Source: Amoebidium appalachense (Eukaryota; Protista; Ichthyosporea). From it: a DNA stretch of 26,275 nt. The position numbers and the translations under genes were made by a program. Shown piece by piece: positions 4,686 to 26,275 of this stretch. Numbering within the stretch: position 1 is the first letter of the stretch; every line of letters begins with the position of its first letter. The stretch spans positions 1-26,275 of the forward strand of contig CAVNZM010000054.1 of the NCBI GenBank assembly GCA_963693365.1. The letters run 5' to 3'. The notes beneath the pieces were generated by a model. That model was not told the origin of the DNA, searched no databases, and saw only the letters and a program-made list of their open reading frames with translations.

Positions 4686-5628
<943 letters not shown>

Positions 5629-5630
5629 TG

Positions 5631-5968
5631 GTGCATGTGTGTGGGGTGGGTCGGTGATTTTTGCAGTGCTTTTGCATGTGTGTGCATATGGGCAGTGCTT
5701 TTGTGCATGTGTGTGGGGTGGGTCGGTGATTTTTGCAGTGCTTTTGCATGTGTGTGCATATGGGCAGTGCTTTTGTGCATGTGTGTGGGGTGGGTCGGTG
5801 ATTTTTGCAGTGCTTTTGCATGTGTGTAGTGCATATGGGCAGTGCTTTTGTGCATGTGTGTGGGGTGGGTCGGTGATTACTTGCCTTGCAACTTGATTAC
5901 ATTCACACACTTTGCATGTGTGTAGTGCATGTGGGCAGTGCTTTTGTGCATGTGTGTGGGGTGGGTCG
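5631..5968. repeat. 72-bp tandem repeat (~4 copies)
   Basis: gtgcatgtgtgtggggtgggtcgg occurs at 5631, 5703, 5775, 5850 and, after a diverged unit, at ~5946. Confidence 0.9.
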
Positions 5969-6323
5969 GGGAGGGGTGGGGTGGGGAGGTTGGAGGGGTG
6001 GGGGGTGGGGTGTGTGTGTGTGTACGGGTGTGTGTGTTTGTGTGTGTATATTACACTCAGGTATTATTTGCATTCACATCAGCAATCTCCCCCCCCCCTC
6101 GTAACCCCACCGAAGACCTCGTCGATGGGTTGGCACTGGTTTAGGACTGTCTAATGGATGGGTTTACGCTATATGAAGGAAAAACCTCCAAACCCGTCGA
6201 CGACGTCGTAGACCGTCGGCGGAGTGGTTTACGACCCCTTTAGGGATGACCGACAGTATTGGGACAGCCCAATGTATAACCCTAACCACACCTATGGATG
6301 GGTTTACAGCAACCACAACTTTC

Positions 6324-7758
6324 GTGGTACTCCTAACCCCATACATTGGATGTACACTGGATGTCGTACACACCTCCGGATTACGACATCATAAGATGGT
6401 CTTGCTGCACCCCCTCGGAAGACTGTCTTACGACGTCGGAAATAACTGTCGAATGGATGGGTTTACAATATCCATATGAATGTCCTCGACAACCATTAGT
6501 TGTCGTAAACCCGCCGGCGCCGCCCCCTGAGTACGACATCGTAACATGCTCTTACGACACCCCACGTGAGACTGTCACTAGACGTCTGAAACCCCGCCGG
6601 ATGGATTGGTTTACAGTATCCATTTGAAGGTCCACGATACACTGTGTATGTCGTAAACACCTGCACATTACGACATCGTAAGATGATATTATGGTGGTAC
6701 TCCTAACCCCATACATTGGATGTACACTGTATGTCGTGCACACCTCCGGATTACGACATCATAAGATGGTCTTGCTGCACCCCCTCGGAAGACTGTCTTA
6801 AGACATCGGAAACAACTGTCGAATGGATGGGTTTACAATATCCAAATGAATGTCCTCGACAACCATTAGTTGTCGTAAACCCCACCTGAGTACGACATCG
6901 TAACATGCTCTTACGACACCCCACATGAGACTGTCAATTGACGTCTGAAACCCCGCCGGATGGATTGGTTTACAGTATCCATTTGAAGGTCCACGATACA
7001 CTGTGTATGTCGTAAACACCTGCACATTACGACATCGTAAGATGATATTATGGTGGTACTCCTAACCCCATACATTGGATGTACACTGTATGTCGTGCAC
7101 ACCTCCGGATTACGACATCATAAGATGGTCTTGCTGCACCCCCTCGGAAGACTGTCTTAAGACATCGGAAACAACTGTCGAATGGATGGGTTTACAATAT
7201 CCATATGAATGTCCTCGACAACCATTAGTTGTCGTAAACCCCCCCAGCATACGACATCGTAACGTGCTCTTGCGACACCCCACGTGAGACTGTCAATAGA
7301 CGTCTGAAACCCCGCCGGATGGATTGGTTTACAGTATCCATTTGAAGGTCCACGATACACTGTGTATGTCGTAAACACCTGCACATTACGACATCGTAAG
7401 ATGATATTATGGTGGTACTCCTAACCCCATACATTGGATGTACACTGGATGTCGTGCACACCTCCGGATTACGACATCATAAGATGGTCCTGCTGCACCT
7501 CCTCGGAAGACTGTCTTAAGACATCGGAAACAACTGTCGTATGGATGGGTTTACAATAGCCATATGAATGTCCTCGACAACCATGAGTTGTCGTAAACCC
7601 CCCCAGCATACGACATCATAACATGCTCTTGCGACACCCAACGTGAGACTGTCAATAGACGTCTGAAACCCCGCCGGATGGATTGGTTTACAGTATCCAT
7701 TTGAAGGTCCACGATACACTGCCAGGTCGTAAACACCTGCACATTACGACATCGTAAG
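6324..7758. repeat. ~359-bp higher-order satellite, left part
   Basis: gtggtactcctaaccccatacattggatgtacac recurs near 6325, 6694, 7053 and 7412. A degenerate lead-in starts at ~6100. Confidence 0.95.
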
Positions 7759-8326
7759 GGTTTTATTTGTGGAAATTATTGACATAAATATTTTTCTGGG
7801 TAAACACGTAGGATGGGTGTTCGATACCAACATAACCATGTAGGCTTCATTTTCGTGTTTTAGCAGTTAGCGGTTGGCTGCCCGCACACGGGCACCAATT
7901 AGCCAATCAAAACATCAGATACCACAGATCACTAGACCGAGTTATGATTGGCTCGGATCAGATTTCACATATCACTAGATCGATTTTGATTGGCTCAGAT
8001 CGGTAGGCTTAGGTATATAAGCACGACAGTTTTTAGCAGATCAGCAAGCTACAAACACATCTTCTGTGTTTAGCATCCACAGCCTTACAGCTATATATTC
8101 CTTTTCACCCACCCACCTACACCCACACTCAACCCCCATTGATCCACACATACGTGCTGTTTTTTCACGGGGCGAAGACTTCCCCCGTTTTTTGGGCACA
8201 TGGACCTCACGGATCAATAAATTGATGACTGGGGGCTTGCCGTGGTTTACAACCATTGCAGGTTCACTTTCGTCCAAGGGGATGTCCCCCTAGAGGCAAC
8301 ACACGTCCCGGAGTAGTTTTCATAGA
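7759..8326 (+). mobile_element. Solo A-B split direct repeat of the Ngaro/PAT-like YR retrotransposon
   Basis: Reverse-complement homolog of 9666-10223 with some substitutions and small indels. It interrupts the satellite cleanly (atcgtaag|atgatattatgg) with no TSD. It contains gattggct (CCAAT) boxes and gtatataagc. Confidence 0.85.
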
Positions 8327-9296
8327 ATGATATTATGGTGGTACTCCTAACCCCATACATTGGATGTACACTGTATGTCGTGCACACCTCCGGATTACGA
8401 CATCATAAGATGGTCTTGCTGCACCCCCTCGGAAGACTGTCTTAAGACATCGGAAACAACTGTCGAATGGATGGGTTTACAATATCCTTATGAGTGTCCT
8501 CGACAACCATTAGTTGTCGTAAACCCCCCCAGCATACGACATCGTAACATGCTCTTGCGACACCCAACGTAAGACTGTCAATAGACGTCTGAAAACCCGC
8601 CTAATGGATTGGTTTACAGTATCCATTTGAAGGTCCACGATACACTGTGTATGTCGTAAACACCTGCAAATTACGACATCGTAAGATGATATTATGGTGG
8701 TACTCCTAACCCCATACATTGGATGTACACTGTATGTCGTGCACACCTCCGGATTACGACATCATAAGATGGTCTTGCTGCACCCCCTCGGAAGACTGTC
8801 TTAAGACATCGGAAACAACTGTCGAATGGATGGGTTTACAATATCCATATGAATGTCCTCGACAACCATTAGTTGTCGTAAACCCCCCCGAGTACGACAT
8901 CGTAACATGCTCTTGCGACACCCAACGTAAGACTGTCAATGGACGTCTGAAAACCCGCCTAATGGATTGGTTTACATCTCGTGCACACCTCCGGATTACG
9001 ACATCATAAGATGGTCTTGCTGCACCCCTTCGGAAGACTGTCTTAAGACGTCGGAAACAACTGTCGAATGGATGGGTTTACAATATCCATATGAATGTCC
9101 TCGACAACCATTAGTTGTCGTAAACCCCCCAGAGTGCGACATCGTAACATGCTCGGGCATCACCCAACGTAAGACTGTCAATGGACGTCTGAAAACCTGC
9201 CTAATGGATTGGTTTACAGTATCCATTTGAAGGTCCACGACACACCATACTATGTCGTAAACACCTGCAAATTACAATATCGTTAGATGATATTAT
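8327..9296. repeat. ~359-bp satellite, right part
   Basis: The same unit resumes in phase after the insertion (8338, 8697). A shortened junction lies near 8975. Confidence 0.95.
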
Positions 9297-9371
9297 GATG
9301 CCCCATCCATTACCAAATGGCAAAAGTTCTGCCATCGTTACCTGTAGGATCTATACACCTAGACACGTGCA

Positions 9372-9429
9372 GGGGGGGGGGGGGGGTCGTAGTGGGAAGG
9401 AGGGAAGACAGGGGGGGTTGGGTGGGGGG

Positions 9430-9483
<54 letters not shown>
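9372..9483. repeat. Poly-G tracts
   Basis: Several G runs, including one of more than 50 nt at 9431-9483. Confidence 0.9.
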
Positions 9484-9627
9484 CGGCAGACACGTACGTT
9501 CTGTAACGCTCCTTCATCTCGTTGAGTGAGTCCTTTTTTATAATGTATTTCCGTTTATATATTTACACATAATCGCCACATTCATTTACCGGTGCGCCAT
9601 GATAAACACATGGCCGGCTTATCATTG

Positions 9628-9629
<2 letters not shown>

Positions 9630-9665
<36 letters not shown>
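9630..9665. repeat. (CA)n microsatellite abutting the retrotransposon 3' end
   Basis: A pure ac repeat ends immediately before B2. Confidence 0.9.
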
Positions 9666-9668
<3 letters not shown>

Positions 9669-10312
9669 ATGAAAACTACTCCGGGACGTGTGTTGCCTCT
9701 AGGGGGACATCCCCTTGGACGAAAGTGAACCTGCAATGGTTGTAAACCACGGCAGGCCCCCAGTCATCAATTTATTGATCCGTGAGGTCCTTGTGCCCAA
9801 AAAACGGGGGGAAGTCTTCGCCCCGTGAAAAAACAGCACGTATGTGGGGATCAATGGGGGTTGAGTGTAGGGTGTAGGTGGGTGGGTGAAAAAGAAAATA
9901 TAGCTGTAAAGCTGTAGGTGCTAAACACAGAAGATGTGTTGTTGCTTGCTGATCTGCTAAAAACTGTCGTGCTTATATACCTAAGGCTACCGGACTGAGC
10001 CAATCAAAACCGATCTAGTGTTATGTGAAATCTTATCCTGAGCCAATCAAACTCGGTCTAGTGATCTGTGGAATCTGATGTTTTGATCGGCTAATAGGTG
10101 CCCGTATGCGGGCAGCCGAACGCGAACTGCTAAAACATGAAACGAAGCCTGTTGATATCGGACACCCATCCTACGTGTTTACCCAGAAAAATATTTATGT
10201 CAATAATTTCCACAAATAAAACCTCTATGAAAACTACTCCGGGACGTGTGTTGCCTCCAGGGGGACATCCCCTTGGACGAAAGTGAACCTGCAATGGTTG
10301 TAAACCACGGCA
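9666..10312 (-). repeat. B1-A2-B2 split direct repeats
   Basis: Two 89-bp B copies (tctatgaaaactactccgggac...gtaaaccacggca) at 9666 and 10224 differ by one substitution that I can see. They flank the 469-bp A segment. Confidence 0.9.
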
Positions 10313-10340: not shown

Positions 10341-11539
10341 TCACTTAAGAATAGAGGCGAATACACGTGTGGTAGTGGCAGCAATGGAGGCCGGACGAAG
10401 TCGGGTATAGATCAGGAAACAGTCGGAGGACCACCTGCCGAGTTGTTTGATCCGGGAGTCGTCGACCCCGGCCTCAGCCAGTGCTGTGGCCCCCCCGATG
10501 CGGAGGCTGTGTCCGGCAAACCGGGAGGGTGAGAGGCCTGCCCGGGAGAGGAGGGCACGGAAATCGGCAGAGAAAGCACTCTTGGTGTAGGGGATGCCAC
10601 CGAGACTGAAGAGGGGGTCGTCGGGTTGACCGGACGTTGTTCCAGGAACTGCCGGAGGAGATGGGCTGGGGAGAAGTGGGTGAGGGGCAGAGCAGCTAGA
10701 GTGACGTTGACACCTCGGGCCTGTACATCCGTCTTAGAGGTTGGCAGGTGGAGGGTGGCATGGGACAAAGTACCGGTGGGGGTGTAGGTGAAGGTCACGT
10801 CTTTCCGTTTAACGTGACGGGACGGGTCGAAAGAAGTCAGGGTCTTGGAGGTAAATTCCCCTTAACGGAGGAGACCACAGAAACCGACGATGAGGGCCGT
10901 CCATAGCCGGAGATTGGCCGAGGAGGCCTTGGTGGGGCACTGGCCATGAAGTAGGCTGAGGTGGGAGGGCAGGAGGGGTTCCCTGGTGGATGAGCGGGGT
11001 CGGATGTTGTGAGAAAGCTGCCATCTGCCCACCCCCCGTAGGAACCAGGCCAGAGACTTGTCGTGGGGGTAGGGAGCAGGGAGGCCCATGTCGAGGTGGA
11101 GCCTGGTGATGGCCGAATTGTAGCCGGTTAAGGAAGAGGCCTGTACCCCTCGTTGGGCACACCAGGCGAGAAAAAGTTGCACGGTGTGTGGGGAGGCCGG
11201 GAGAGAGGACCCGGAGGGGGATTGCAGCCGAGATGCCACACAGAAATCGATGAACACTTTTTGCACCCGGGAGTAAAAGGCCCGAGAGTCGAGGTTGAGA
11301 CTCAGGGCCTGGCATTCCTGCAGGGTAGTGGTGGCTCGAAGCAGCTCGGCCGGAGCAAAGTGGGGGGCCAATCTGCCAGCGTTGCTCCGGAACGGGAGAT
11401 CTTGGGGGGGGGGGGGGGGGGGGTTAGCCCAAGGGAAGGGATAGGAACTCGTGGACCCAGGAGGGGAAGGGGCAGGGCTCCGGTTGCAGGGAAGGTCGGA
11501 GTCGTCGGGCCCGGGGAAGTTGGTTACGAGAAATGGCAT
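10341..11539 (-). pseudogene. Tyrosine recombinase of the DIRS-type element (disrupted)
   Basis: SAM-like N-terminal region, then GLLR*GEF (in-frame TAA at 10862-10864), SKTD, a frameshift near 10620, and PLF...GHSLRIGGAT...LGRWSSDCFLIY with a stop at 10341. The catalytic R, K, HxxR, W and Y motifs are all present. Confidence 0.9.
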
Positions 11540-12561
11540 CGGCCAGATGGTTGAGGGGTCCTGGTAGGTAGGATGCCTGTAACGTAAATTGGTATTGCAT
11601 TTCCATGCGGGTGATGAACCGAATAAGTTTGGCCATCACGGGGTGGGGGGAAGACCGGGAGTGCAGGTCAGACACAGCACCCGTGTTGTCGCATAAAATA
11701 CGGACATGGTGGGTGGACCAGGGGGGCGGGTTGGTGCAATGGTAAGATCTCTGCGTGTCAAGCTCAAAGTCGCAGGATCGATCCTGGTTACTTCCGATTT
11801 TTTTCTGCCTCGACGGTCCACCGGTCTGGCCGCCCCCTAGAAGCCATCACCCCAGACCACGTCAAAGCAGCACCACCAATTTGTTATCACCCGGCCGTAA
11901 GACATGACGTCATGAACAGCACCGGCCCTCTGACGTCGACGGCGCGCCGCTTGGGCATCCCGGCCCAACGTTCAAGTGGGAGACCAATCCGAGTCACCGG
12001 CCACGGTTCGGGTCAGCGTCCTGGGCATGGGGTCTTCCCTTTCAAGTCTTTATGTTTGTGTATGTGTCCCGGGTCGCTCCCGGCTGGTGTTGTTAAAGTG
12101 AGCTGTGCTCATTTCCCCACTAGCGTTGCTGCGGCTAGAACCGTGGGATAAGGCGTAACTAAAAATAGTGCCAGTTCTGGTCAATTAGAATCCTGACTTA
12201 TGAGTGTGCTATACAGTACGATCTGTGTCTAGGCGGAAGACGGTAAGCTCCCCTGAGGCAGTGCCTCGCCGGGAGTGAAACGGGATAAAATAAAAAAAAG
12301 GGTGGACCAGGAGGGGGCCCAGAGGGCCACGGCGGCTGCGATGGCCAGGAGTTCGATGACGGAAGAACCGAGTTTACCCTCATGAGCATAGAGGGCTTGC
12401 CAATGGGTGGAGGGGGACCAGGGCATGAAGAACCATTGGTCGAGCCAGTGGCCTCCTAGACCCACCGATCCGGCAGCATCGGTGGCCAGGGTAGTGTATG
12501 TGGGGGGTGTGATGAGGTGCACCCCATTCCATGATGTGAGGAACTGGTGCCATTCGGCTAT
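11424..12561 (-). pseudogene. DIRS-type RNase H domain (pol C-terminus) split by a SINE
   Basis: LATDAAG, IELLAI, RILCDNTG and NHLADAISR supply the D-E-D-D residues. Removing 11723-12299 plus one TSD copy restores the frame (WAPSWSTHHVRILCDN). Confidence 0.9.
11723..12299 (+). mobile_element. tRNA-derived SINE (577 bp) with a 12-bp TSD
   Basis: Flanked by gggtggaccagg at 11711-11722 and 12300-12311. The head has an A-box-like tggtgcaatgg and a B-box-like ggatcgatcc. There is a 3' stem-loop at 12247-12276 and an A-rich tail (ataaaataaaaaaaa). Confidence 0.85.
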
Positions 12562-12568
12562 ACTACAA

Positions 12569-12641
12569 TAAGGGGCGCGGCACCCCACGTTAGTGACGTC
12601 ACAAAGTGTGACGTCACTAACACAGGGTGGCGCACCCCTTA
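12569..12641. promoter_or_regulatory. Long hairpin at the candidate viral terminus, with two TGACGTCA sites
   Basis: Perfect 15-bp stem gttagtgacgtcaca-aag-tgtgacgtcactaac (12589-12621), with outer arms caccc/gggtg and taagggg/cccctta. Confidence 0.75.
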
Positions 12642-12895
12642 GGATATGGCAGATATGCATATGGGATATGGCGATATGCAGTATGATATGGGTGTATATT
12701 GTGATTAGGATATGGATATGGGTATGGATATGTACAGGAGCACGTGCACACACTGTGTGTGTATGCATAAACACGTGCAGAGCACGTGGATTTAATTAAA
12801 ATAGTAAAGGGAAAACGTGTCATGTGTGCGCGTGCACGCACGCGCACATGCGACACGTACACAGTTCTGAGATCAAAGGAATGCGACGGTGTGCA

Positions 12896-13105
12896 CAAGG
12901 CGGCCAATGAGAATTCGAATTCCGAATTCCTTGTACAAGGCGGCCAATAGTAATGCGGATGCACAAGGCGGCCAATGATAATTCAGTTCCAAAAAGCCAG
13001 TTGCCGCACAAGGCGGCCAATGAACATTAAGATAGCACATTCCATTTCCAAGGCGGCCAATGAGCGCCCGGATCGGTCAACCTGGGTTTCCTATTGGCCG
13101 CCTTG
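12896..13105. promoter_or_regulatory. Iterated 13-bp CCAAT-containing motif upstream of polB
   Basis: caaggcggccaat at 12896, 12936, 12964, 13009 and 13049, plus an inverted copy at 13093. Confidence 0.8.
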
Positions 13106-13231
13106 TGTAAACAATGGTGGCGCACTTACGCACGCACAGGATCATTATTTTGCGTTCTGTTTATTGATGTTTTTGCTGCCGGCGCTGCCTGGCAATTACA
13201 TTGTGGCTAAGATCTAAGATTACTGTTCAGG

Positions 13232-16200
13232 ATGTTAGACGACAGCCAGGAAGGCTTCATAGAGGACCTGCTGCGGGCACTGGATGCCGACCCGCAGCAG
13301 GCCCTGCAAGCCAACCCGTTTCTGCAGGCCCTGCAGGGCCCACCACCCCCACCCCCACCCCCTCCCCGGCCTCCCCCCTGCCCCCGCCCCCATCAACCAC
13401 CCAGATGACCCCCAGATCATTGCCATGCCTGCCGAGGGCAACTGGCAGCTGCGTTCACGGGTGGATGACATGCAGGCAAGGGGGTTGGGCGTACGCGGCC
13501 ACACCCTCGAGTACCAACCCCTGCGCACCATGGACGTCACCGAGTTCCCCCAGTTCTTTGCAGCTATGCTGTTTGATGCCATTGCCCGTGCAGATGTGCA
13601 GGTGGGGGACATGATCATCGTACGCATCATCAGCTTGCACGTGCAGGCCAATGGTGTGGACAACCAGGTGGGGGATGACGGCAACCCCAACGCCGATGTC
13701 ACCAACCGTCGTGTGTTTACGGCAGGCCCCATGGACGTGTTCAACGGTGATGTGAATGCCGTGGTGCTCAAGCTGATGGAGAACATACGCCAACGCACCC
13801 AGAGTGCAGCCGAGACCTTTATGGACGGGCGATCCAGTGTGCATCTGACCGTGGTCCGGCCCAAGGACATGGTGAGGAAGGGTGCCTGCGGGTCCCTGTC
13901 CACCCTCACAGGGGTGACAGCCCAGTGGCTGCGGGAGCTGGTGGAGGCCAAGGCCGTGGTGGATGTGACCACCCTGGTGAAGGCAGCCTGCAGCAGCAAC
14001 GACCCGCAGGTGACAGGGGAGAAGGAGCTTGACCACCATCAGCTGCTTGAGATTGCCGACGGCCCCTCCTGTGCCCAGCTGTGCCTGGTGTACTGTATGG
14101 CAGTGTGGGTCAGCAAGGCAGCCAACAGCAACGAGAACGGCAGCCTGCCCTCCGAGCACACTCGTAAGAACCTGGGCAATGGGGGTGACCTCATGAAGCT
14201 CAAGGACCACCACGTGCTGTGCCACCTACTGGACCCTATGGATGTGATTGGTATTGGCAACAAGGCTCTGGGTAGGTCTGTGTCTTCCGGCTGTGGGGTG
14301 TGCAACCTGCTGCAGCCACCCATCAACCCAAGGAGCAACTTCCAGGACCGTTACCTGCGCAGGCTGGCAAGGGCCACCCGCCGGCTGTGGGCCAAGTACA
14401 AGCTGCCTGTGCCTGCAGAGGACGGGCTGACGGTGGATCAGTTGGGTGCAGCCGTGGATGCCCTCAACATGCAGATTGCCAGTGAGACCCAGTCAGTCAC
14501 CCGTCTACGGCTGGTGGTGGTGGACCTGGACAGCAAGGGTAGGGTGGCAAGAAGGTACGGGGACGTGAGCTCGGCCCTTCCCCCCGGCAAGCTGTGCACC
14601 ATGTACCTTGGCCACTCCCAGAAGCTGGGCCACTTCACGGCCATCCCCTCCAATGTCAGCAACACCATCGAGCGCCTGCGCAACGGCAACCACACGGGGG
14701 CCGTACGTCGGAGCCTCAGCACCTGCTTCCACTGCAACCAGACCGTGCAATCCAAGAACATGGGGGTGCACCGTTGTGTGAACCGGTGTGGGAACTGTGG
14801 ATCAAAGGGGAACCACATCGACCAGGCAGATGCCTGTGTGTGGACCCCCGGGCGCCGTGTGGAGCTAGCACGGGTGGGGGAGGATGCATGGCCTTACCGT
14901 TGTGACGACTGCTGTGGCCTCTTCCCTTCGGCCAGGTGCATGGCCAACCACAGCACCAAGCTCAAGGGGGCCGGGGCCAGGGCCGACGGCCGGCAACAAT
15001 CCTTCTGTGACACCGTGTTCTGGTGCCGGCTGGCCACGTGCACCCACGGCCTGCAGGGGTACAGGATGATTGGCAGTGGAGATGATGCCCTCAGGGTGTG
15101 TGTGTCGGGCAATCCTGCCGGCCGGTTCTTCTACAAGTTCAAGTATGCCAGCGTGCGCCGTCTACGCCGGCTGCACACTGCCCAGGAGCAAGGGGGGTAC
15201 GATGCAGGCGTCAACGACGAGGGGGAGGACTGGGGCTGGGTCACGGACACGGAGGGGGACTCGGCCACCGAGGATGCCGACTCAGACCCCCCACCCAGCC
15301 TTGCCGACTCGTCGGACGACGAGGGTGGCGATGACGAGGATGATGGCATCGACCTCATGCAGATGTCTGAGGGGGAGGGGCAGGGGGAGGGGGAGGGGGG
15401 TCAGCACGGGGCCAAGAAGGACGACACGTGGACACAGCACCTGTGCACCGACTACGACTGCAAGGGCTGTGGGGGGTACATGCCCGGCAACCACACGTGC
15501 CTCATACGTAGCAAACGAGATCAACGGCGTGTGTACATGTGCACACACACGGATGCAGACGGCACGGTGTGTGACAGGGTGGCATGCTACTCCAACGAGC
15601 AAGGGAGGGGGAGGGGGGGGGGGAGGGGGGGAGGGGGGGGGGAGAGTCACCTGCACGGCAGAGGGCCAGGGTGGATGATGCCGGCTGCAGGGTGGGTGCA
15701 CACGTGTGCAAACGGCACGTGCCCGACGACGATGGCAGCAGGGGGTCGTGGAAGCAGACCCGGCAGCCCATCAGGGACATCGTGCTGGACTTCGAGACCA
15801 TGCCGGTGCCTGCCCCAGACCACACGGCCGAAAACCCCCACTTCATCCACATCGTGTAACTTGCAGTGGCCATGTACGTCGAGCCAATGGGCGGCCAGCC
15901 GTCTGCCCCCATCATCTTCTGGTCGGAGGCCTCGGCCGACGGCAAGAATGCCTGGGACGTGCTGATGGAGGACAACCACCACGTGATCGACAAGGTGGTC
16001 AAGTGGCTGTTCGACACACCAGCCCATACCGGCGGCCGGGTGTACTGCCACAACGGTAGTGGCTTTGACTTCCACTTTGTGACCAAGAGGGTGGTGGGCA
16101 GCCAGGACAACGTGTACGTGCCCATCATGGCCAACAGCAAGATCAAGTCCTGCCGTATACGTCACTACATCAAGAATGCCGGTGCACCAGCAACCCCCGT

Positions 16201-18862
16201 GCCCATGCGGGTGGATGGTGATGGTGATGGTGATGGCCACCATGGCCATGGCCATGGTGATGGCCACGATGGCAATGGCCATGGTGATGGCCATGGTGAT
16301 GTGCAGCAGCAGGCAGCAGCAGCAGCAGCAGCAGCAGGTGCCGGCCGGAAGAGGAGGCACGGGGGGCAGAGGGGGGACGGCAGCCGCACGACGGTGGTGG
16401 AGCTGACGTTCGTGGACACCCTCAACTTCCTCACCATGTCACTGTCGGATGCAGGCAAGGCCATGGGCTGCCAGGAGACCAAGGGCCACTTCCCCCACCA
16501 TGCAGCCACCTTTGCCAACTTCAAGGCCGGCCACATCCCCTTCCCTGGGCCCGAGGACTTTGGGGCCCAGGACATGAAGCCCAAGCAGCATGCTGCCTTC
16601 ATGCAGTGGTGGCGGGAGGAGCAGGCACGTCTGCAGGGGCAGGCACCGGCGGGCACGTGCTACGACATTGCCCAGCAGTGCGAGGACTACTGTGTCAAGG
16701 ATGTGGTGCTGCTGCAGCAGGTGGTCAAGGCCTTCATGTCGAAACTCATCGAGCTGACGGGCATCGACCCCTTCACGTGCGTCACCCTTGCTTCCCTCGC
16801 CATGCACTTCTGGATCACGCAGGCCATGCCCAAGGACGTGACCGTGATGCGTGACCAGACCATGGGCAACGTCAACAGCAGCAAGAAGGAGCAGGAGTAC
16901 ATCGACTACATCACCCACGGCCTGGGGGTGGGGCCAGACGACGTTGCACGGCACGTGGCCACCGGGCACGACCCCCACGGCAGGGCCACTGCCGATGCCA
17001 AGGCCACCCACGACGACGGCACGTGCACCTACTACTTCTTCCACGGCTGTGTGTTCCATGGGTGCCCCGACTGCAACAGGCACGAGGATCTACTAGTAAC
17101 GATGAGGGTGGTGAAGAGGCCAGCCAAGGAGGCCTACGACAGCACCATGGGCCACGAGAGGTACATCCGTGCCCAGGGGCACAAGGTGCAGAGCATGTGG
17201 GAGTGCAGGTGGGACAGGCTTCGGCAGAGCCCGGAGGTGAAGGCAGCACTTGCAGCACAGGCTGCACGGAGGGAGGGCACCGGCAGGGTGGCCCCCGTGC
17301 CCACGGGCCCGGTGCAGTTCCGTGATGCCTTCTTTGGTGGCCGTACGGAGGTCATCACCCGTCACATCGAGGTCAAGGAGGAGGACTGGCCACAGGCAGG
17401 CCTCAAGTACGTCGACGTCACCTCCCTCTACCCGTACGTGATGATTGACAAGTACATGCCGGTGGGCAAGTCACAGTGGTTCACGTCACTGCCCATCAAG
17501 CCGGAGGACCACCCCTCGGCCATCGTCACGGACCCCCAAGTGCTCAAGGAGAGGCTCGACAAGACGTGCCGTATGACCCCCGGCTCCCCCAAGGCCAGGA
17601 CCAAGGGGTACTTTGGTGTTGCACGTGTGAGGGTGCTCCCCCCCAAGGACCTGTTCATCCCCGTGCTGCCTGTGCGTATGACGGGTGCCCAGGGGTACGA
17701 CAAGCTGGGCTTTGTGCTGTGCAGGGCCTGCAGCAGCAAGGAGGAGGCCCAGGCCACCTGCATGGACGAGGAGGGCAACCCCCGGGTGCGTAAGCATGTG
17801 CAATGCACACACACGGACGAGGAGAGGGCACTGGTCGGCACGTGGACGACGGAGGAGCTGAAGGTGGCCGTGCGTGATGGGTACACCATCCTCGACGTGT
17901 ACGATGTGGTGCATTTCAAGAAACGCACCAAGAACCTCTTCCGGAAGTACGTGCAGACGTTCCTGAAGGTGAAGCTCACCAGCACCACCGTGGATCCTGC
18001 CGACATACCCGCCCTCGTGCACCTGTTCAAGGAGCACTACGGCATCACGGTGACGGCCGACGAGTTCAGCCCCAACCCTGCCCTTCGTACCATCAGCAAG
18101 CTGTTTTTGAACAGCCTCTGGGGCAAGCTGGTGCAGAGGGCAGGGCTCGACACCATCGAGTTTGTCGACGATGTCGATCGGCTGAGTCTGCTGGTGACCA
18201 ACCCCAACATCTTGGTGCTTGACGTCGAGCCCATCGGCGAGCAGAGGGTGGCCATCAAGTACAGGCCCAAGAAGGAGACGGCCCCACCCCCCTCCTACGC
18301 GAACATCGCCATCGGCACGTTCGTGACGGCCCATGCACGGTTGCACCTCTATGGTGCCCTCCGGTCCCTCTCCCCCCAGCAGGTGGTGTACATGGACACG
18401 GACTCCATCGTCTACCACTACGACAGCAGGGTGCCCCACCTCAGCCACAACATCGACTCCACCAACGGGGACTTGCTGGGCAACTGGAAGAACGAGACCA
18501 CCACCCCCATCGTCGAGTTTGTTGGTGTGGCCCCCAAGACCTATGCCTACCGCACCCAGGACGGCAAGACCGACGTCAAGGTCAAGGGCATCACCCTCTC
18601 CCGTCGTGCAGCCGACATGGTGAACCTCCCCAGCCTCCGTATGCTGGTGCACGGGGAGATGCCGAGTGTGAGTGTCACCAACCACCGTCTGCTGCGTGAG
18701 CCCGTGCCCGGGGTGCCCCACAACTACCACCTGGCCAGCAAGGACCAGAGGAAGACACAGTCGGGGGCCTTCGACAAGAGGGGGGTGTTTGAGGCAGCCG
18801 ACGGCAGTGTACGCAGCTACCCCATTGGGTGGGCAGCACCGGAGGGGACTCTGCAGTTTTGA
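13232..18862 (+). CDS. polB: Protein-primed family B DNA polymerase polyprotein (disrupted as sequenced)
   Basis: Motifs: ExoI DIVLDFET, ExoII HNGSGFD, ExoIII YCVKDV, motif A DVTSLYP, motif B KLFLNSLWGK, motif C YMDTDS, then KTY and KVKG. Likely start is the ATG at 13232 (MLDDSQEGFIEDLL). Frameshifts fall in the C-run at ~13340-13390 and the G-run at ~15603-15642, and there is an in-frame TAA at 15857-15859. Confidence 0.93.
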
Positions 18863-19456
18863 GTGGGGGAGGGGGAGGGAGGGGGAGGGGAAGGGTTAGT
18901 TAGCATTTTAAGTTAAAGTATGCAATTTTTAAATCAAAGTTAAATCAAAGTATCAAAGTATGCAGGGAATACGTTAGGGTAGACATGAAAATTATATGGG
19001 GTGTCTGTTAACTTAGCTTCAGAAAAAAGGAAAATGGGGTGCAGTGTGCATGGGAAAGGGGGTCAGAAGAAAAACTTAAAGAAAAAGACGGTGTTTTTAG
19101 GCATACACCACGTGCACCGTATGCATGAGGGGAAGCAGCAAATAAAATCAGAGTTTAATGCAAACACAAACCCTTCCAATGTGGCCTTGGGTAGAAGCAT
19201 GAACACCAACATCAGCACCATACATGCATACAAGGGGGGAGACTTGCCAAAAAGAGCAGGCACCTGCACATATAAAAGGCACACACATGTGCAAAGATAC
19301 CTCACTTTTTCCAACACGAAAACAGGCAACACACGAAAAAATCAAAATTAAATAAATTAAATTAAATACAAGACATGTGCACAATATGTTAGGGGTAGCA
19401 GGTGGTGGTAGGGGGTGTGCCAGCACGTGCCCACACTACCGTCGACCCACTCACGT

Positions 19457-19648
19457 TTATTTAAACACCACAGGTGCCGTGCGTATGGGACGGTTGGCGT
19501 TGATGCCGGACAACGGTACGGTGTAGGCCAACGGGCGTTCCCGGAAGTCACGTATGGTCGAGACGTCCATGACGTTTAAGCTGTTGTTCTGCTCCGGAAA
19601 AATGAACGGCTTCTTACGTATGGGGGGCCCGCCGATGTTGAGCTCCAT
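19457..19648 (-). CDS. Small hypothetical viral protein (63 aa)
   Basis: ATG in an aacatgg context like neighbouring viral genes, co-oriented and tightly packed. Confidence 0.5.
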   Translation of the reverse strand: MELNIGGPPIRKKPFIFPEQNNSLNVMDVSTIRDFRERPLAYTVPLSGINANRPIRTAPVVFK

Positions 19649-19687
19649 GTTGCAGAAGTAGGGTGTTTACACAACCACACACAATAT

Positions 19688-19924
19688 TTAATAGTTCTGG
19701 AAGGAGCTCTTGTCGGCAGCCACAGGCCAGGGTGTGTACGTGGCCGGCCTCGGCCTCATGGTCCCCCCTGGGCCCTCAATGACGGTGTTCCCCGGCCCGT
19801 AGAACGGTCGGGTTTGGGGTACAGGCCCGGGGGTCGGTCGGGTGCGGTAGGGGAGGGGTACGGGGAGGGGGGCAAGGGTGTGTGGCAACGCATACATGCG
19901 CATGTGCTCCGTGCCGGGTGCCAT
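19688..19924 (-). CDS. Small Pro-rich hypothetical viral protein (78 aa)
   Basis: ATG ORF beginning 20 nt after the upstream stop, co-oriented with the structural block. Confidence 0.5.
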   Translation of the reverse strand: MAPGTEHMRMYALPHTLAPLPVPLPYRTRPTPGPVPQTRPFYGPGNTVIEGPGGTMRPRPATYTPWPVAADKSSFQNY

Positions 19925-19943
19925 AATGGTGGTGGTGGTGGTG

Positions 19944-22470
19944 TCACTGTTGCCTGTGGCGTAGATTATTTACCCTTCTTCTTGCCGCTGGTTTCTTGTC
20001 GTCCTTCTTCTTCTTGGTGTCCTTCTTCTTGGTGTCCTTCTTCTTGGTGTCCTTCTTCTTGGTGTCCTTCTTCTTGGTGTCCTTCTTCTTGGTGTCCTCC
20101 TTCTTCTTGGTGTCCTTCTTCTTGCCGTCCTTCTTCTTCGTACCCTTCTTCTTGGTGTCCTTCTTCTTCTTATCCTCCTCGGTGGTACCGGTGGTGTAGT
20201 CCAGTGCAAGCTGTGCCAGTCTCACAGTGTCCGGTTGAAAACCAAGGGCCCGGCCAACAGTCGGTAGGGCTGCCCTAACCAACGGAAGGGCTGCTCGGAC
20301 GTGTGGGTGCTGTGTGTGGTGTGGTAGGTCCCCCGACTTGTAGCCGTCATGACGCGTAGCCGGACTTGGTTTTGCAGAGGGGCCTGCAGGGGGAGGCTTT
20401 CTCCCGGACCTACGGCCACCCGAAGGGTCGTGCTCTATAGCTAGAGGGGTGGAGGAGGCCGGTGGAGTCGACTTGTGCTGCTGCACGTAGTACTCCAGCA
20501 AGTGCTTTCCGACGTTTTTCACCTCGGTGATAAGGCCCTGGTCACCCAACACAGCTTCCTGCAGGCTGCCCCCTCCGACCACACTAGCCAGCCTCTCCCC
20601 ACCCGCTGAAAGTGCTTCAACGCCACGTTTCAACACCGATTTCATATAGGGTGTCAAGGCCGGGTTGTCAAACACTGAGTTTTGCTCGTACATCCGTCTC
20701 TCATACTCCTCCAGGCTCTCACCGTGCATCCGTTTGAGTGGCCCCAGCAACGCGTTCATACCGGAGGAACCCTTGTCGGTACGGGTCACCGGTACGGGCT
20801 CATAGGTCCCCTCATCGGGTGGGGTAGCAGACGTGGGACCCTCGAGTCCCCCTTGCAGAGTGGTTGACGGTGCAGCCGGGCTCGTGGGGGGTCTCCAGAG
20901 TGCAGGTGTCGTCCCTCCCCCCTTCATGGTGACCGACTTTTTAGTCGTTGGGTAGTAGGTGGCAGCAAGGGAGGGGTGAACCGTCGGAGTCTCGGTTAGG
21001 AATGCCAGTGGTGGTGGTGCACTTAGAACACGGCCAAACTCCCTCCCGGCAGCCCTTGCAGCCCTCGCCTGGTTGCCCTTGTCCCCGAGACCCCAGAGGA
21101 TCCACTTGACAAGAGCGAGGCCACCTATCTGTGCCACCCTCCACCAATTCGGGTGGTTCAACATGAGCCACCTCTCCAGCTCCGAGAGGGGGGTCCAAAA
21201 GGAGTCGTCCTCAATAGTGGCAACGGCAGCAGTGGTGGCTTCGGCTAGCTGAGTCTCGGTCGGTGTTGCAGAAGTTGCCGTGCTGGTTGGTGCCATGGCA
21301 GGCAGGTGGGGTGCTGCAGGGGTCGTGGGCAGTGGGCCGGGGTGCCAGTTGGGGGGTGGGTACGGGAGGGGTGGCCCGTCGGGCTTGGCAGGCAGGTGGG
21401 GTGCTGCAGGGGTCGTGGGCAGTGGGCCGGGGTGCCAGTTGGGGGGTGGGTACGGGAGGGGTGGCCCGTCGGGCTTGGCAGGCAGGTGGGGTGCTGCAGG
21501 GGTCGTGGGCAGTGGGCCGGGGTGCCAGTTGGGGGGTGGGTACGGGAGGGGTGGCCCGTCGGGCTTGGCAGGCAGGTGGGGTGCTGCAGGGGTCGTGGGC
21601 AGTGGGCCGGGGTGCCAGTTGGGGGGTGGGTACGGGAGGGGTGGCCCGTCGGGCTTGGCAGGCAGGTGGGGTGCTGCAGGGGTCGTGGGCAGTGGGCCGG
21701 GGTGCCAGTTGGGGGGTGGGTACGGGAGGGGTGGCCCGTCGGGCTTGGCAGGCAGGTGGGGTGCTGCAGGGGTCGTGGGCAGTGGGCCGGGGTGCCAGTT
21801 GGGGGGTGGGTACGGGAGGGGTGTACGGGTGGGTTTGGGTCCCTTCTGCCCTAGGAAACCCGACGGTCGGGGAGTCGTGGTCGAGCCGCCCGTGTGGGGT
21901 GTCAGCGGTCCCTTGGAGACACGGGCAGGGGGACGTATGGCAGACGTTGGCCGTGGTGGTGGTGGTCCAGGGTGCCAGCCCGGGGGTGGGTAGGGTATGG
22001 GAGGGTCAGCTGACTTGGTTGGGTGGTCGGACGGGGTGGGGGGAGGGGAGGGGTGCCAGTGGGGTCACGTCAGGTACGGGGGGAGGGGGTGGTCGGGGTC
22101 TGGTCCACACGTACGAGCTACCGTACTTGTCCTTGAGGTGGGAGTAGTAGTCCATGTAGTCTAGGTCCACCTTAACCACCTCCGGCGGATGCCCACCCCA
22201 CAAAGACCCATGGTCAGGGTCCATGTACTTGAGCCTGAGGAAGGCCTCGGGACCCTCCCTAATGAGCTTACGGTATTCATCCGGGTGCAACCGCTGCTGC
22301 AAAGACCCAAACAAACCGACAGGGAGCTCACGCCACGTTTCCCCGGCGACCTCGTGTGGGTGCTTGTAGCTGACACGGTAATGGCCCACACGTTGTAACC
22401 AACCCAAATGCTTGTCCAAGTCATCAGCGTGCCCATGAGGCTGCTGCACGTTGGGGGACATGGTGGACAC
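19944..22470 (-). CDS. Large Pro-repeat/Lys-repeat protein (~840 aa if one frameshift near 22020 is repaired)
   Basis: The 450-aa ORF stays open upstream through the 90-bp repeats to ~22020 (PTKSADPPIPYPPPGW...), one base out of frame with the 22006-22470 ORF. It ends in (KKKDT)n. Confidence 0.65.
20002..20171. repeat. 15-bp coding tandem repeat (KKKDT)n
   Basis: ccttcttcttggtgt is repeated about 10 times with variants. Confidence 0.9.
21296..21823. repeat. 90-bp perfect coding tandem repeat, ~5.9 copies
   Basis: Identical units start at 21301, 21391, 21481, 21571, 21661 and 21751. On the minus strand they encode PLPYPPPNWHPGPLPTTPAAPHLPAKPDGP. Confidence 0.95.
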
Positions 22471-22494
22471 GGTATTGTTGTAAACTGGTGTTTA

Positions 22495-22914
22495 TTATTT
22501 GGAGAACCCGGCATACTGTGCCATGGGTTGCCTGGTAAAGCTGTTCTGGGGGTCACCACTACGGCCCACCCTCACGGGTGCAAAGTCCAGGTAGTAGGTC
22601 TGGTTGTTGAACGGGAGACCCCTGCTACCCAGACCACTCCTGCCCGGCATGGAGGGTAGGTGGTTGTCGGCGGGCAGGTTGCCGAAAGTCGGCAGCTCAC
22701 GGAACGGCACACCGTACACCCCGGCCTGGAAGGTGCCGTCCGTGTGAGGTACACGGTAGGGGGCAACATAGGCTGCCTCGTACTCGGCCTGTGGAGCCAC
22801 CTTGTAGCCGTACACGGCTGCCGGGGTTGGTGTAGGTGCCCACGGTACAACGGCAGTGTCGGTAACATGGCTAGGTGTAGGTGCCCACGGTACAATAGCA
22901 GTGTCGGTAGCCAT
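22495..22914 (-). CDS. Hypothetical viral protein (139 aa)
   Basis: aacatgg start with tataaaaa about 25 nt upstream. The N-terminus has a 15-aa duplication (TDTA(I/V)VPWAPTP, 45-bp period). Confidence 0.65.
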   Translation of the reverse strand: MATDTAIVPWAPTPSHVTDTAVVPWAPTPTPAAVYGYKVAPQAEYEAAYVAPYRVPHTDGTFQAGVYGVPFRELPTFGNLPADNHLPSMPGRSGLGSRGLPFNNQTYYLDFAPVRVGRSGDPQNSFTRQPMAQYAGFSK

Positions 22915-22962
22915 GTTTGCCGTGTGTGCTTGTTTTTATATAGCCAGACACAATTTAGCACT

Positions 22963-24703
22963 CTAGGCCTCCACCGTCACCTCACGGGCACCAGACAGCA
23001 CAAGCACGTTTTCATGGTGCACAAACGTGTCAAGGGTCAGGTCGTCGTACTCGTTGGCTCTGGAGGTACCGCTGGTGAACTTCTCCGTGTTGAGGTGCAG
23101 CAGAATGGGGGTAGCATCGGAGCTGGTGTCGAGGCCAGAGTACAGGTCACGGTCCCTCTCCAGGTCAAGGGCAATCATGAACTGTTTATCCGGCCAGGCA
23201 GTGCTGTTGTACATGCAGTCGGCCGTGACGTCACCCAAGAAGTACAGGGCCTTGGCCAACTCCGCCCATGCCTCGGCACAGTTGTTCGAGGACACTCGAA
23301 TCTCGTCGAGGGGCTTCTGGTAGGGTCCTATCTTGATCTGGTAGCTGGTGATGTTACTACGCTTGGACCTGAACGTCTCGCTGTTTGCTTGGGCCCAGTC
23401 GTTGCCACTCCTCACCAGGGACAGCAGGGACTTGACGTTCCGCCCCCGGAACGAAATGTGCAGGTCGGCAGGACTGCCCCCCTTGACGTAGCTCTGGAAA
23501 TGGGTGAACGTGCTGTATGGAATATACACGTTCTTCTCCATCAGAGCCTTCTCAAAGCCGGCCGTGTACACGGCGTTCCACTCAATAGTGGAAGACGGGG
23601 TTGATAATCTCGTAGGACACGTCCTTCACCCATTCCGCGTTCTCGGTGGGCACGTACAGCACCTGGTTGGCCTCCCCCAGCGACAGCTCGATCTGTACCT
23701 CCCCCATGTATGACAGGGGCAGGTACCTGCCGGAACGCATGAGGCCGAGCTTGAGCTGATGAATGTAGGTGAACCCGTCAGTGGCATCGATCTGGGCCTG
23801 AACGTTGACCTGCTGGGGTGGCCACTTGGCCACCTTCTTGGTGTAGTCGAGGTACTTGCCGTCTGTAATGCGGTCCTTGCCGGGTACACTGTCGGCCTCG
23901 GCGGGTGTGGGTATCAAGGTGTCATTGGCAAGGGGGGCTACGTCCTTGAGCTTTTCAATGCCAAACAGCCTCTTGAGCGGGTCGGGGTTGAAGAGAGCGT
24001 ATTTACTATCGACAGCCGTATTCCACTTGTCTGCGTACTCCCAGTCGTCGTCCTGGGGCCCGTAGCTGCCATGCATGCGGCCGGCAGGGCAGTTGCCGTA
24101 GTCGGCCGACGACAGGAAGCGTTCAAGGTTGATCATGAGGTGGTTGTACCCAGAAATGTCCTCCACGGTAGTGCCGTTGATGGACACGCGGGCACGGTCA
24201 AAGGGGGCAGCCGAGGAGCACAGGTGACCACCCATCATAGCCATACCCTCCAGGTTACGGACCTTGAGAGGGAAAATGTCCTTACTGGCAACAGCCGCCG
24301 GATTGAGGGTGTCAGAATCAGCCGTCCCGGTCTGGGGCACTGTGGTACCCTCAAAGCCGACAGTGTCCTGGTTGTTGCTGATGGGGTGGTCGAGCTGGTC
24401 AGGGAGGGGGAACTTCCGCAGTCTCTCCACCTTGACACCCACGTTCTCGGGGGCGTTGGGGACGTTGGCCTTGAACTGGAACGTCATGTAGCTGTTGAGA
24501 CAGTCCAGGAAGCCCACAGCAGGCAGGGAGAACCGAATCACACGCTGCCCCTTGGAGCTGTACGTCGAGCCGGTCACCGGATAGGTCTTGACGGTCGATC
24601 GGCGGTTAATGTGGCTGAGCTCGACAGGTGAGTAGGTGCCGGCGTCCGTCAGCTTGTGGTAGGCCAGGTTGAGGGGCACGGAGGCGTCGTAGGGGGCTGC
24701 CAT
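22963..24703 (-). CDS. Double jelly-roll major capsid protein, PLV type (frameshift near 23585)
   Basis: IRFSLP..GFLD..NSYMTF, RVSINGTTVEDISGYNHL, LGLMRSGRYLPL..MGEVQIELSL and the C-terminal FMIALDLE..SGLDT resemble PLV MCP motifs. The two ORFs (373 and 202 aa) are joined by a small indel, and the gene is adjacent to the ATPase. Confidence 0.82.
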
Positions 24704-24715
24704 GTTGCCGGTGTG

Positions 24716-25459
24716 TTACACATGGTCGACATTTTTTTCATTCGTGCCGAGCACCACCTCCTCCTCAAAATTGCGAAACATCCGACCCTCGTTCAGCCGG
24801 ATAAAAAGAAAGTCGTGCTTGTCCCGGTAGACCGTGTCCATGAGCTCGAAAAACTGGGGGGTTTCGAGGGTCGGCAAGAACTCGTCCCTCAACACCTTGA
24901 GCTCGGTGTTGTTGGTGTTCTTAAAATAGGCCAAGGCATCGGCCTGGCTACGTAGCTCAAGGGGGATCTTGTTCAATTTCTGCCCCACCATCATCACCGA
25001 CACACCAATGTGTCGTCGGTTCTGTGCCATACGTACAAATTCACGGAGGTTGCCGGATTTTCGGAAAATATGGGACATGTCGTCGAACACCAACAACATC
25101 CGGTAATTTGGGTTGACCTTCTTGTGTTGGAGGGACAGTTTGAGAATCTCGGGGAGGAAGGTGACGTCCTGGTGCAGGCGGGCCTTGGGAATTTTCAGGG
25201 CCGTGCCGAGGGTGTGCATGCTCGGGCTGAAAATGTACACACGGTCAAACTGTTTATTGTAGAACTCGCCCTCCCGGGCAATGAGGTTGACGAGCAGGTT
25301 GGACTTGCCAGAACCAGGCTGGCCAATAAGCAAAAAGAAGAACACGTTGTCCATGAGGGGGTAGGGCACGTTCAGTTTGGTGTCACACGTCATCGGAATG
25401 TGCTCCACCGACAGTGGTGCCGGCAAGGGGTTGACGGCTATGGGTGGGGTAGGGTGCAT
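24716..25459 (-). CDS. A32/FtsK-HerA-like genome packaging ATPase
   Basis: Walker A LIGQPGSGKS, Walker B LLVFDDM, NRRH arginine motif and MMVGQ; 247 aa, intact. Confidence 0.92.
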   Translation of the reverse strand: MHPTPPIAVNPLPAPLSVEHIPMTCDTKLNVPYPLMDNVFFFLLIGQPGSGKSNLLVNLIAREGEFYNKQFDRVYIFSPSMHTLGTALKIPKARLHQDVTFLPEILKLSLQHKKVNPNYRMLLVFDDMSHIFRKSGNLREFVRMAQNRRHIGVSVMMVGQKLNKIPLELRSQADALAYFKNTNNTELKVLRDEFLPTLETPQFFELMDTVYRDKHDFLFIRLNEGRMFRNFEEEVVLGTNEKNVDHV

Positions 25460-25487
25460 GGTGTCACTCAGTGTAGGGTGGCTAAAA

Positions 25488-25724
25488 TTAATGACGGCAG
25501 CTGTCGATCTGCACGTTGTAGACGGTAAACTCGTCGAGGCACTTGAAACTGCAGAGGTACATAGGCTCGTCCCCCAGCCACGTCATGGTGCACCCACAGT
25601 CAAAGTCACAGCCTGGCCCCTCCTCCTGCGTGGCACACCGGAACCAGTGCCCACAGAAGTCGCACGCGTGCTGCCACGGCTCGGCATCCGTGTCGGACGC
25701 GCTCTTGGACGTTGTGCCGACCAT
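25488..25724 (-). CDS. Small Cys-rich, probable zinc-binding protein (78 aa)
   Basis: CDFC...CDFDCGC...LCSFKCL, with the ATG at 25724 in an aacatgg context. Confidence 0.55.
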   Translation of the reverse strand: MVGTTSKSASDTDAEPWQHACDFCGHWFRCATQEEGPGCDFDCGCTMTWLGDEPMYLCSFKCLDEFTVYNVQIDSCRH

Positions 25725-25818
25725 GTTGGTTGACCGTGTTTGATAGTGGGCACACATTTTTTGGACGTATGTACGCCCAACGTTGGAAAAAAATGTGTCC
25801 CTATTGGTAACACCAACA

Positions 25819-26275
25819 ATGTCAACCGACGAGAACCAAATCGAGCGCATGTCGGACGGTGAGGCCGACCAACCGGTGTCCAACGAAACCACCAACACCG
25901 GTATGGGTGTGGACCCCATGGTGCTGGAAGCCGGCAACGCGGCAAGGGCCAAACGGCAACCCACAGCACGGCCGCTGGAGGCCTTGGAGAAGGGTAGGAG
26001 CACAAGGGTGGAACGCATGCGTAGGAACAAGGACTATATCCGTGAACTTGAGCAGAAGCTGCAGGTGCTGGAGACCCGCCCAGCCGACCCCCCACCCCCA
26101 GCAGCAGCACCGGTACTGGTAGCACCCCCAAAGGCCCCCCGGCCAAAGCAGAAGAAGGCCCCACGAAAGCCCTTGGCACGGGTGACCTATGAAGAGGAGG
26201 ACAGCTACGAGGAGAGTGACGGGTATGACAACCCGTACAACACGTACTATGAGCACTATTACGTGCCCCCACCCC
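25819..26275 (+). CDS. Partial hypothetical viral protein (runs off the window; absent from the ORF track)
   Basis: MSTDENQIERMSDGE...KRQPTARPLEALEKGRSTRVERMRRNK...KQKKAPRK...YEEEDSYEESD, with no stop before the window end. Confidence 0.7.
   Translation, partial: MSTDENQIERMSDGEADQPVSNETTNTGMGVDPMVLEAGNAARAKRQPTARPLEALEKGRSTRVERMRRNKDYIRELEQKLQVLETRPADPPPPAAAPVLVAPPKAPRPKQKKAPRKPLARVTYEEEDSYEESDGYDNPYNTYYEHYYVPPP

Follow-up and report, generated by a model that had tools for sequence, protein, structure and literature searches.

An integrated polinton-like virus, probably of an Amoebidium-like ichthyosporean, with a Maverick-type polymerase and a PLV-type capsid

Identification of the element

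The 26,275-nucleotide stretch of DNA analysed here (hereafter the window) was found to carry, from position ~12562 to its right-hand end, the left ~14 kb of a viral element, with the window end (26275) falling within the element. We consider this to be an integrated polinton-like virus (PLV) of an Amoebidium-like ichthyosporean, in which a Maverick-type polymerase is combined with a PLV-type capsid and packaging ATPase, and assign this interpretation a probability of roughly 0.75. The visible part encodes a protein-primed family B DNA polymerase (pPolB), a major capsid protein (MCP) of double jelly-roll type, an A32 ATPase and six to seven orphan open reading frames (ORFs), and begins with a hairpin-tipped end; the layout is convergent, with pPolB on the forward strand and the capsid and ATPase genes on the reverse strand. 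A previous reading of the sequence alone had listed a pPolB, an A32-like ATPase, an MCP and at least six unassigned ORFs in such a layout, and all of these were seen again. It had also proposed a 'chimeric or undescribed lineage'. The pairing of a Polinton/adintovirus-type polymerase with a PLV-type capsid is now backed by searches, fold and trees, but 'undescribed' was overstated, because the capsid falls in a catalogued cluster (MMPC_3; PMC10120064), Amoebidium elements that carry capsid genes and an adintovirus-like PolB have been reported (PMC11244446), and reassortment of polymerase and capsid is stated to be common (PMC8502044, section 3.4), or swaps to be frequent, in this virus group (10.64898/2026.10.13.758929).

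The mismatch between the polymerase and the capsid/ATPase module is real, since capsid/ATPase loci and polymerase loci have different gene neighbours. The element is polinton-like in its replication and a PLV by its capsid, and filing it as an adintovirus is inappropriate. It is likely to be one of the 44 'adintoviruses' already reported from the Amoebidium reference genome, which are ~30 kb when complete, form four clades across isolates, and encode a PolB whose nearest relatives are those of adintoviruses, capsids that were annotated with HHpred, as well as VLTF3 and Dam (Sarre et al. 2024, PMC11244446). Adintovirus Dam genes in Amoebidium are also mentioned in 10.64898/2026.05.21.726589. 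Module mixing as such is already known, and adintovirus-type polymerases with unrelated capsids have been published from protists (PMC8502044). What is new here is that the capsid marks the element as a PLV rather than an adintovirus, and that both modules bear a scar of host methylation. A literature search, which covered few subscription papers, retrieved no report that the capsid of the Amoebidium elements belongs to a PLV cluster, nor of their loss of CGC/GCG.

The polymerase

The polymerase gene (13233–18862, +) is a giant pPolB of the Maverick/adintovirus type, amounting to 1,876 codons end to end in four pieces. Its last 1,000 residues matched Pfam DNA_pol_B_2 (PF03175, E 4e-40) and retain the exonuclease and polymerase motifs. 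Three interruptions disrupt the frame: one near a run of C at ~13345–13390, one lying between ~15600 and ~15790, and an in-frame stop at 15857–15859. An alternative genetic code was considered for this stop and rejected, as it is the lone stop in a frame of ~1,090 codons and the contigs compared from other sequencing runs read differently there. Searches limited to proteins of 550–1,750 residues, in which full-length relatives of the giant protein could not appear, retrieved 723 homologues. The best 120 of these were 28–33% identical to the query, and all 16 organism-named rows among them were of animal origin; the top match belongs to a salmonid cluster. The protein is ~400–550 codons longer than most of the matches listed, and low-complexity insertions at 15240–15400 and 16215–16340 (an acidic stretch, and a His/Gly/Asp and poly-Ala stretch inside the exonuclease region) make up part of its extra length.

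Within the N-terminal extension, the segment at 14592–15026 (+) comprises what is likely a vOTU catalytic-His strand and, after it, Cys clusters; the domain names follow PMC11161782, in which this region is assigned a terminal-protein domain and a vOTU protease. Pairwise BLAST of the N-terminal piece against single homologues gave no significant match. When aligned by hhalign with Maverick-type polymerases, including the His motif and Cys clusters, it scored 49.4 with a probability of 64%, against 16.0–24.5 for 20 shuffles. This match is weak but above the shuffles, and agrees with the extension bearing Cys/His clusters that had been noticed earlier, as well as with the N-terminal OTU-like domain that counts among the features of Polinton-type pPolBs. 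A nuclease-like (VSR-type) insert between the exonuclease and palm regions (17009–17215, +) could be aligned with its counterpart in a profile built from 30 of the polymerase matches. The insert that had been called VSR-like is therefore present and common to Maverick-type polymerases, and a VSR domain has been described in polinton polymerases (10.1101/2023.08.22.554363), but the label itself found no Pfam match.

Two trees (43 and 24 rows), both from quick searches, placed the pPolB with Maverick-type polymerases, apart from two outgroup rows and on a long branch. The same clade includes the contigs L100 and L101, which carry gossevirus-type capsids (typed by eye) and rve integrases, and the environmental contigs L102 and L104, in which polymerases of 1,730–1,870 codons stand beside a capsid-like gene with a weak match to the capsid family of the window (hmmsearch --max E 2.7e-8 and 3.2e-6; hhalign probability 16%). 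In L102 (6695–15816) and L104 (5202–13779), the polymerases face these capsid-like genes, which at 1,110–1,170 codons are about twice the usual capsid length. An ATPase was not detected in the examined stretches of L102 and L104.

The capsid and the packaging ATPase

The major capsid gene (22963–24703, -) contains one break, near 23585, and was read with an X at that position. A search with it returned four homologues, namely P0122 (53% identity, intact), an NCBI protein (28%) and proteins of Creolimax (30%) and Sphaeroforma (29%), so that both organism-named homologues are ichthyosporean; a sensitive search from P0122 extended the family to 276 homologues. Sequence searches of the capsid against the PDB gave no match, and its single-sequence AlphaFold model reached a pLDDT of only 30. 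A model of P0122 with a 133-row alignment (pLDDT 74.8) matched double jelly-roll capsids (Foldseek E ~1e-12), including a PBCV-1 capsid chain (Z 28.0, root-mean-square deviation 2.9, 356 aligned). Failure of the MCP to model as a double jelly-roll had been named beforehand as an outcome that would overturn the sequence-only reading; such a fold was obtained for the 53%-identical homologue.

The Creolimax homologue (P0123) agrees in length and in the printed part with the Creolimax MCP in Table S2 of Bellas et al. 2023 (PMC10120064). There it stands in cluster MMPC_3, which is labelled 'new', has no Mavpol label and lies outside the virophage and Maverick columns; among the rows listed, those matching the Creolimax MCP are all from Sphaeroforma. 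The capsid of the window is 30% identical to the Creolimax member over 75% of its length, which exceeds the 25%/30% clustering rule of that study. In a 55-row tree, it grouped with P0122 with a support of 100, and seven rows that include the window, Creolimax and Sphaeroforma were united with a support of 93. None of 90 capsid-family members (of 133 aligned) matched a Pfam capsid family, those of virophages included, and with MMPC_3 lying outside the virophage columns a virophage-type MCP is not indicated. The fold of P0122, together with the searches, MMPC_3 and the tree, instead points to a capsid of PLV type. As to its group, the gossevirus-type capsids of L100 and L101 matched the capsid-family profile poorly, and MMPC_3 carries no PLV group label (TsV, PgVV, Trimcap, Gossevirus or Dino). 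A novel Sphaeroforma capsid has been noted in PMC7805220, and the available text of 10.64898/2026.06.19.733378 makes no mention of ichthyosporean capsids. Neither the capsid nor window-specific patterns retrieved a close locus from viral or metagenome contigs, or from a phage collection.

The adjacent gene (24716–25459, -) encodes an intact A32-like genome packaging ATPase of 247 amino acids (Pfam Pox_A32, E 3e-9), as is expected of a PLV; its assignment is supported by a tree, and none of its 22 homologues is animal-named. Amongst 99 loci found via the ATPase, this capsid family was present in 26 and a pPolB match in none, although many of these loci are short. Twelve long ATPase loci were scanned, of which five encode helicase-type replicases, two a recombinase-like gene, one an rve integrase and one VLTF3. 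The VLTF3 (L002, 2638–3285) lies on a viral contig with one of the closer ATPases (39%) and a related capsid; it is the gene whose presence in the elements of Amoebidium was reported to be unusual.

Depletion of CGC/GCG

In the coding DNA of the virus, CGC/GCG was depleted more strongly than any other trinucleotide, with 126 occurrences against 350 expected (observed/expected ratio, o/e, 0.36), the next lowest ratio being 0.67. Control loci (60 of 129 loci, those passing a size filter) gave ratios of 0.75–1.59. The depletion extends over the polymerase (0.31), the capsid (0.49), the ATPase (0.18) and the flanking retroelement (0.23), it was upheld by a synonymous-codon test on six viral pieces (z -3.8 to -11.3), and CGT/ACG are spared from it. 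In contrast to the genes, the terminal region at 12562–13232 retains CGC/GCG (o/e 1.21), and may be shielded from methylation or keep these trinucleotides by function.

In Amoebidium, methylation reaches ~70% at CGC/GCG and ~20% at the remaining CGs; the other ichthyosporeans whose genomes have been sequenced possess no DNA methyltransferases (PMC11244446). The loss of CGC/GCG and the ichthyosporean capsid together point to an Amoebidium-like host. It is likely that prolonged CGC/GCG methylation in the host nucleus wore down these trinucleotides in both modules, and since both are eroded, the pairing of polymerase and capsid is likely to be old.

Copies in other sequencing runs

The stretch was present in 20 of the 24 runs listed, which come from three named studies. 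In the four runs compared, variants were 85–99% identical, ranging from <90% to >99%, and the element belongs to a multicopy family with several related copies. Third codon positions accounted for 22 of 24 of the differences listed for the ATPase, a pattern that divergence among functional viruses would be expected to produce. At the capsid break, the polymerase stop and an ORF overlap near 22040, the sequence of the compared contigs departs from that of the window. These breaks are therefore likely to be specific to this copy or to its assembly, two possibilities that the contigs do not distinguish. No RNA run was among the runs listed, a result that is uninformative on expression. In one run (X13), the capsid-arm contigs are deep and near-identical, and the polymerase contigs shallow and diverged; because genes cannot be ranked by the depth of contigs, the pattern is a hint at module swapping within the family and not evidence of it.

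Weighing of the interpretation

Several observations weigh against an integrated PLV of an Amoebidium-like host with mixed modules. The fold was modelled for the homologue P0122 and not for the capsid of the window itself, and the 55-row capsid tree took in no Maverick capsid. An Atlas cluster with 45% PF21738 members scored 0.97, level with PLV-type clusters, in a comparison where the recognition value of the query was low. Within the polymerase clade, three named placements were not rejected by the approximately unbiased (AU) test (p-AU 0.28, 0.43 and 0.30). Third-position enrichment is weaker in the capsid (8 of 12) and the polymerase (15 of 25), counting the differences listed only. An F-box ORF in the flank is not depleted of CGC/GCG (o/e 0.9), and the evidence for the host is indirect, being drawn from trinucleotide loss and capsid kinship rather than from a sequence match, and identity with the published elements is likewise supported indirectly. 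Finally, VLTF3, Dam and a minor capsid gene, which are reported for the Amoebidium elements, were not found in the window by Pfam and tblastn, in an element that runs past the window.

A true adintovirus (Maverick-Polinton) with a strongly diverged capsid and ATPase, its three genes being congruent, would fit the polymerase type, the nesting of the pPolB among animal and metagenomic rows under a simpler model (support 97), the Atlas score of 0.97 and the name given to the Amoebidium elements in PMC11244446. We regard it as very improbable, as the capsid and ATPase have no animal matches and the cluster of the nearest named capsid (MMPC_3) stands outside the Maverick columns of PMC10120064; the same points, with a tree that contained no Maverick capsid, leave a Maverick-type (Mavpol1/2) MCP without indication. 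In a search of BFVD, an adintovirus-labelled model ranked only 15th, amid giant-virus capsids, and adintovirus virion proteins are apparently animal-restricted (PMC8502044). The sequence-only reading had named congruence of the three genes inside one described clade as the outcome that would overturn it; the neighbours of the polymerase were found to differ from those of the capsid and ATPase, with the capsid tree lacking Maverick references. It is likewise very improbable that a polymerase arm and a capsid arm of two elements were brought together by misassembly within the repeat family or by recent recombination in the host genome. No compared contig covers both arms, the family is multicopy with divergent variants, and several of the breaks in the window lie near homopolymer runs. 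Nonetheless, one contig joins the polymerase end to the spacer (18719–19272), base composition and CGC/GCG loss are common to both arms, and PolB and capsid genes occur together in the ~30 kb insertions of PMC11244446; L102 and L104 likewise pair a polymerase of this clade, of 1,730–1,870 codons, with a distant capsid-like gene.

The host itself could be another eukaryote with CGC/GCG-biased methylation, harbouring the same kind of virus, in which case this would not be a published Amoebidium element. The capsid is only 29–30% identical to its ichthyosporean homologues, which leaves room for such a host, as does the indirectness of the evidence for Amoebidium. The ichthyosporean capsid cluster, the CGC/GCG signature and the repeat-rich flanks agree in direction, however, and methyltransferases are missing from the other ichthyosporeans with genomes (PMC11244446), and we consider this alternative unlikely.

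Comparison with known systems

The PLV interpretation of the element was set against several related systems. Like the 'adintoviruses' of Amoebidium, it is integrated and multicopy, has several clades, combines an adintovirus-closest PolB with an MCP gene that only remote methods recognise, and resides in a host whose genome is rich in transposable elements and in 5-methylcytosine (5mC); unlike them, it shows no VLTF3, Dam or minor capsid gene in the window, where it is truncated. The capsid of those elements is given no lineage in the available text of PMC11244446. With MMPC_3 of Creolimax and Sphaeroforma it shares a 30%-identical capsid and a grouping in the tree, whereas MMPC_3 was catalogued as capsid genes only, with no Amoebidium row among those listed (PMC10120064).

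Maverick-Polintons and adintoviruses (Polintoviricetes) also possess a pPolB with an N-terminal extension, Cys clusters and a VSR-type insert, a terminal repeat region, likely to exist here as well, and a packaging ATPase. The present element differs in a capsid and ATPase without animal relatives and in its longer polymerase; neither an rve integrase nor adenain was found in the window, beyond which the element continues. An animal host counts among the features of that group, and the indirect evidence here points to an ichthyosporean. Protist MELD viruses with an Alpha-adintovirus-like PolB (Blastocystis and others, PMC8502044) and contigs L100 and L101 resemble it in having a long-branch adintovirus-type PolB alongside unrelated virion genes in a unicellular host, but belong to other capsid families and carry an rve integrase beside the polymerase, which is not the case here. 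PLV genomes measure 15–45 kb and have terminal repeats; here the left end, with a hairpin, was seen, and the right end lies beyond the window.

Orphan genes and genes not found

The remaining ORFs had no Pfam family at threshold and were unmatched by 1,813 ORFs of 129 related loci. On the reverse strand, ORFs of 63 (19457–19648) and 78 amino acids (19688–19924, Pro-rich) lie to the left of a large orphan gene (19944–22461), which is likely to be one ORF of ~840 codons broken near 22040 into 19944–22064 and 22006–22461; at this overlap, the contigs of all four compared runs show an indel relative to the window. The gene product has six Pro-rich repeats of 30 residues each and ends in a tail rich in Lys, (DTKKK)n, and its last 450 amino acids had no Atlas match. 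Further reverse-strand ORFs encode 139 amino acids (22495–22914) and a small Cys-rich protein of 80 amino acids (25488–25730), whose Cys spacing makes zinc binding likely, and a forward ORF of >152 amino acids (25819–26275) is cut by the window end.

As had been noticed from the sequence, no penton, adenain or integrase was recognisable: none was found in the window by Pfam, and eight control proteins (three rve pieces, an adenain, VLTF3, two recombinases and a methylase) gave no tblastn match at E<=1, a weak test for an element that exceeds the window. The right part beyond the window would hold an integration enzyme and the minor capsid gene, no minor capsid protein having been recognised among the orphan ORFs. 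An Rfam search gave zero matches.

The left end, insertion site and host flank

The non-coding left end (12562–13232) contains no long ORF and is likely to be a terminal inverted repeat (TIR), its partner not being in the window. At its tip is a 73-nt hairpin (12569–12641) with 35-nt arms and a 3-nt loop (-36.1 kcal/mol, z -9.0), a stability reached by none of 200 shuffles. A short GATATG-type repeat follows at 12642–12735. Upstream of the polymerase, six exact copies of a CCAAT-containing 13-mer (12896–13105; five direct, one inverted) were observed against 0.09 expected, which none of 100 shuffles attained; they are likely promoter or origin elements.

The virus is inserted at ~12561/12562 in a host retrotransposon (10341–12561, -), since retroelement contigs in other runs diverge from the window at 12557–12561 and then continue as different sequence. 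Both the start at 12562 and the insertion into a retrotransposon suspected earlier were borne out by these junction contigs. The interrupted element consists of tyrosine recombinase (Pfam Phage_integrase, E 1e-7) and RNase H pieces, the latter recognised by eye, and we take it from its motifs to be DIRS-like. The tyrosine recombinase was considered as the integrase of the virus and rejected, as it lies outside the border, beside the RNase H pieces, and its contigs run on elsewhere. One RNase H piece is split by a 589-nt insert (11711–12311) with an A-rich tail and a 12-nt direct repeat at its borders, like a retroposed SINE-type element, which the contigs of all four compared runs skip.

Further into the flank, an intronless F-box ORF of 460 amino acids (3030–4412, -; Pfam E 5e-5), whose CGC/GCG ratio of 0.9 is unlike its surroundings, is perhaps a recent acquisition or unmethylated. 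An imperfect inverted repeat of ~580 nt around ~1.3 kb (7752–10312), within a 359-nt satellite array (6300–9300), resembles a foldback element or a non-autonomous TIR element. Other host repeats (645–948, 1000–1900 and 4780–6050) comprise a 160-nt tandem pair, a G-rich array based on 8 nt, and GA microsatellites tied to a repeated ~45-nt unit.

Proposed life cycle and implications

Judging from the families of its genes, the linear genome of this PLV would be copied by protein priming from its ends, via a terminal-protein domain fused to the polymerase, and the vOTU domain would cut off the priming domain, as hypothesised in PMC11161782. Packing of the DNA into icosahedral double jelly-roll capsids would be the task of the ATPase, and the integrated copy would presumably be silenced by host 5mC. 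By analogy with the VLTF3 of published Amoebidium elements (PMC11244446), dependence on a giant virus is possible.

We tentatively suggest, as a wider proposal that is more doubtful than the interpretation of this element, that ichthyosporeans host their own family-level lineage of PLVs, combining an MMPC_3 capsid with a giant Maverick-type polymerase and mislabelled as adintoviruses. This lineage may have resided long in a methylating nucleus, where genic CGC/GCG was mostly lost and the terminus spared, and its polymerase may be a surviving sister of that of animal Mavericks.

If the interpretation is true, a label would be corrected, in that elements of a relative of animals called adintoviruses by their polymerase would be PLVs by their capsid, and adintovirus capsids would stay restricted to animals. 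From the trinucleotide scar, the element would seem to have resided in the nucleus under host methylation and not to have arrived recently, and the scar would offer a cheap way to assign a host to each module and to date its residence there.

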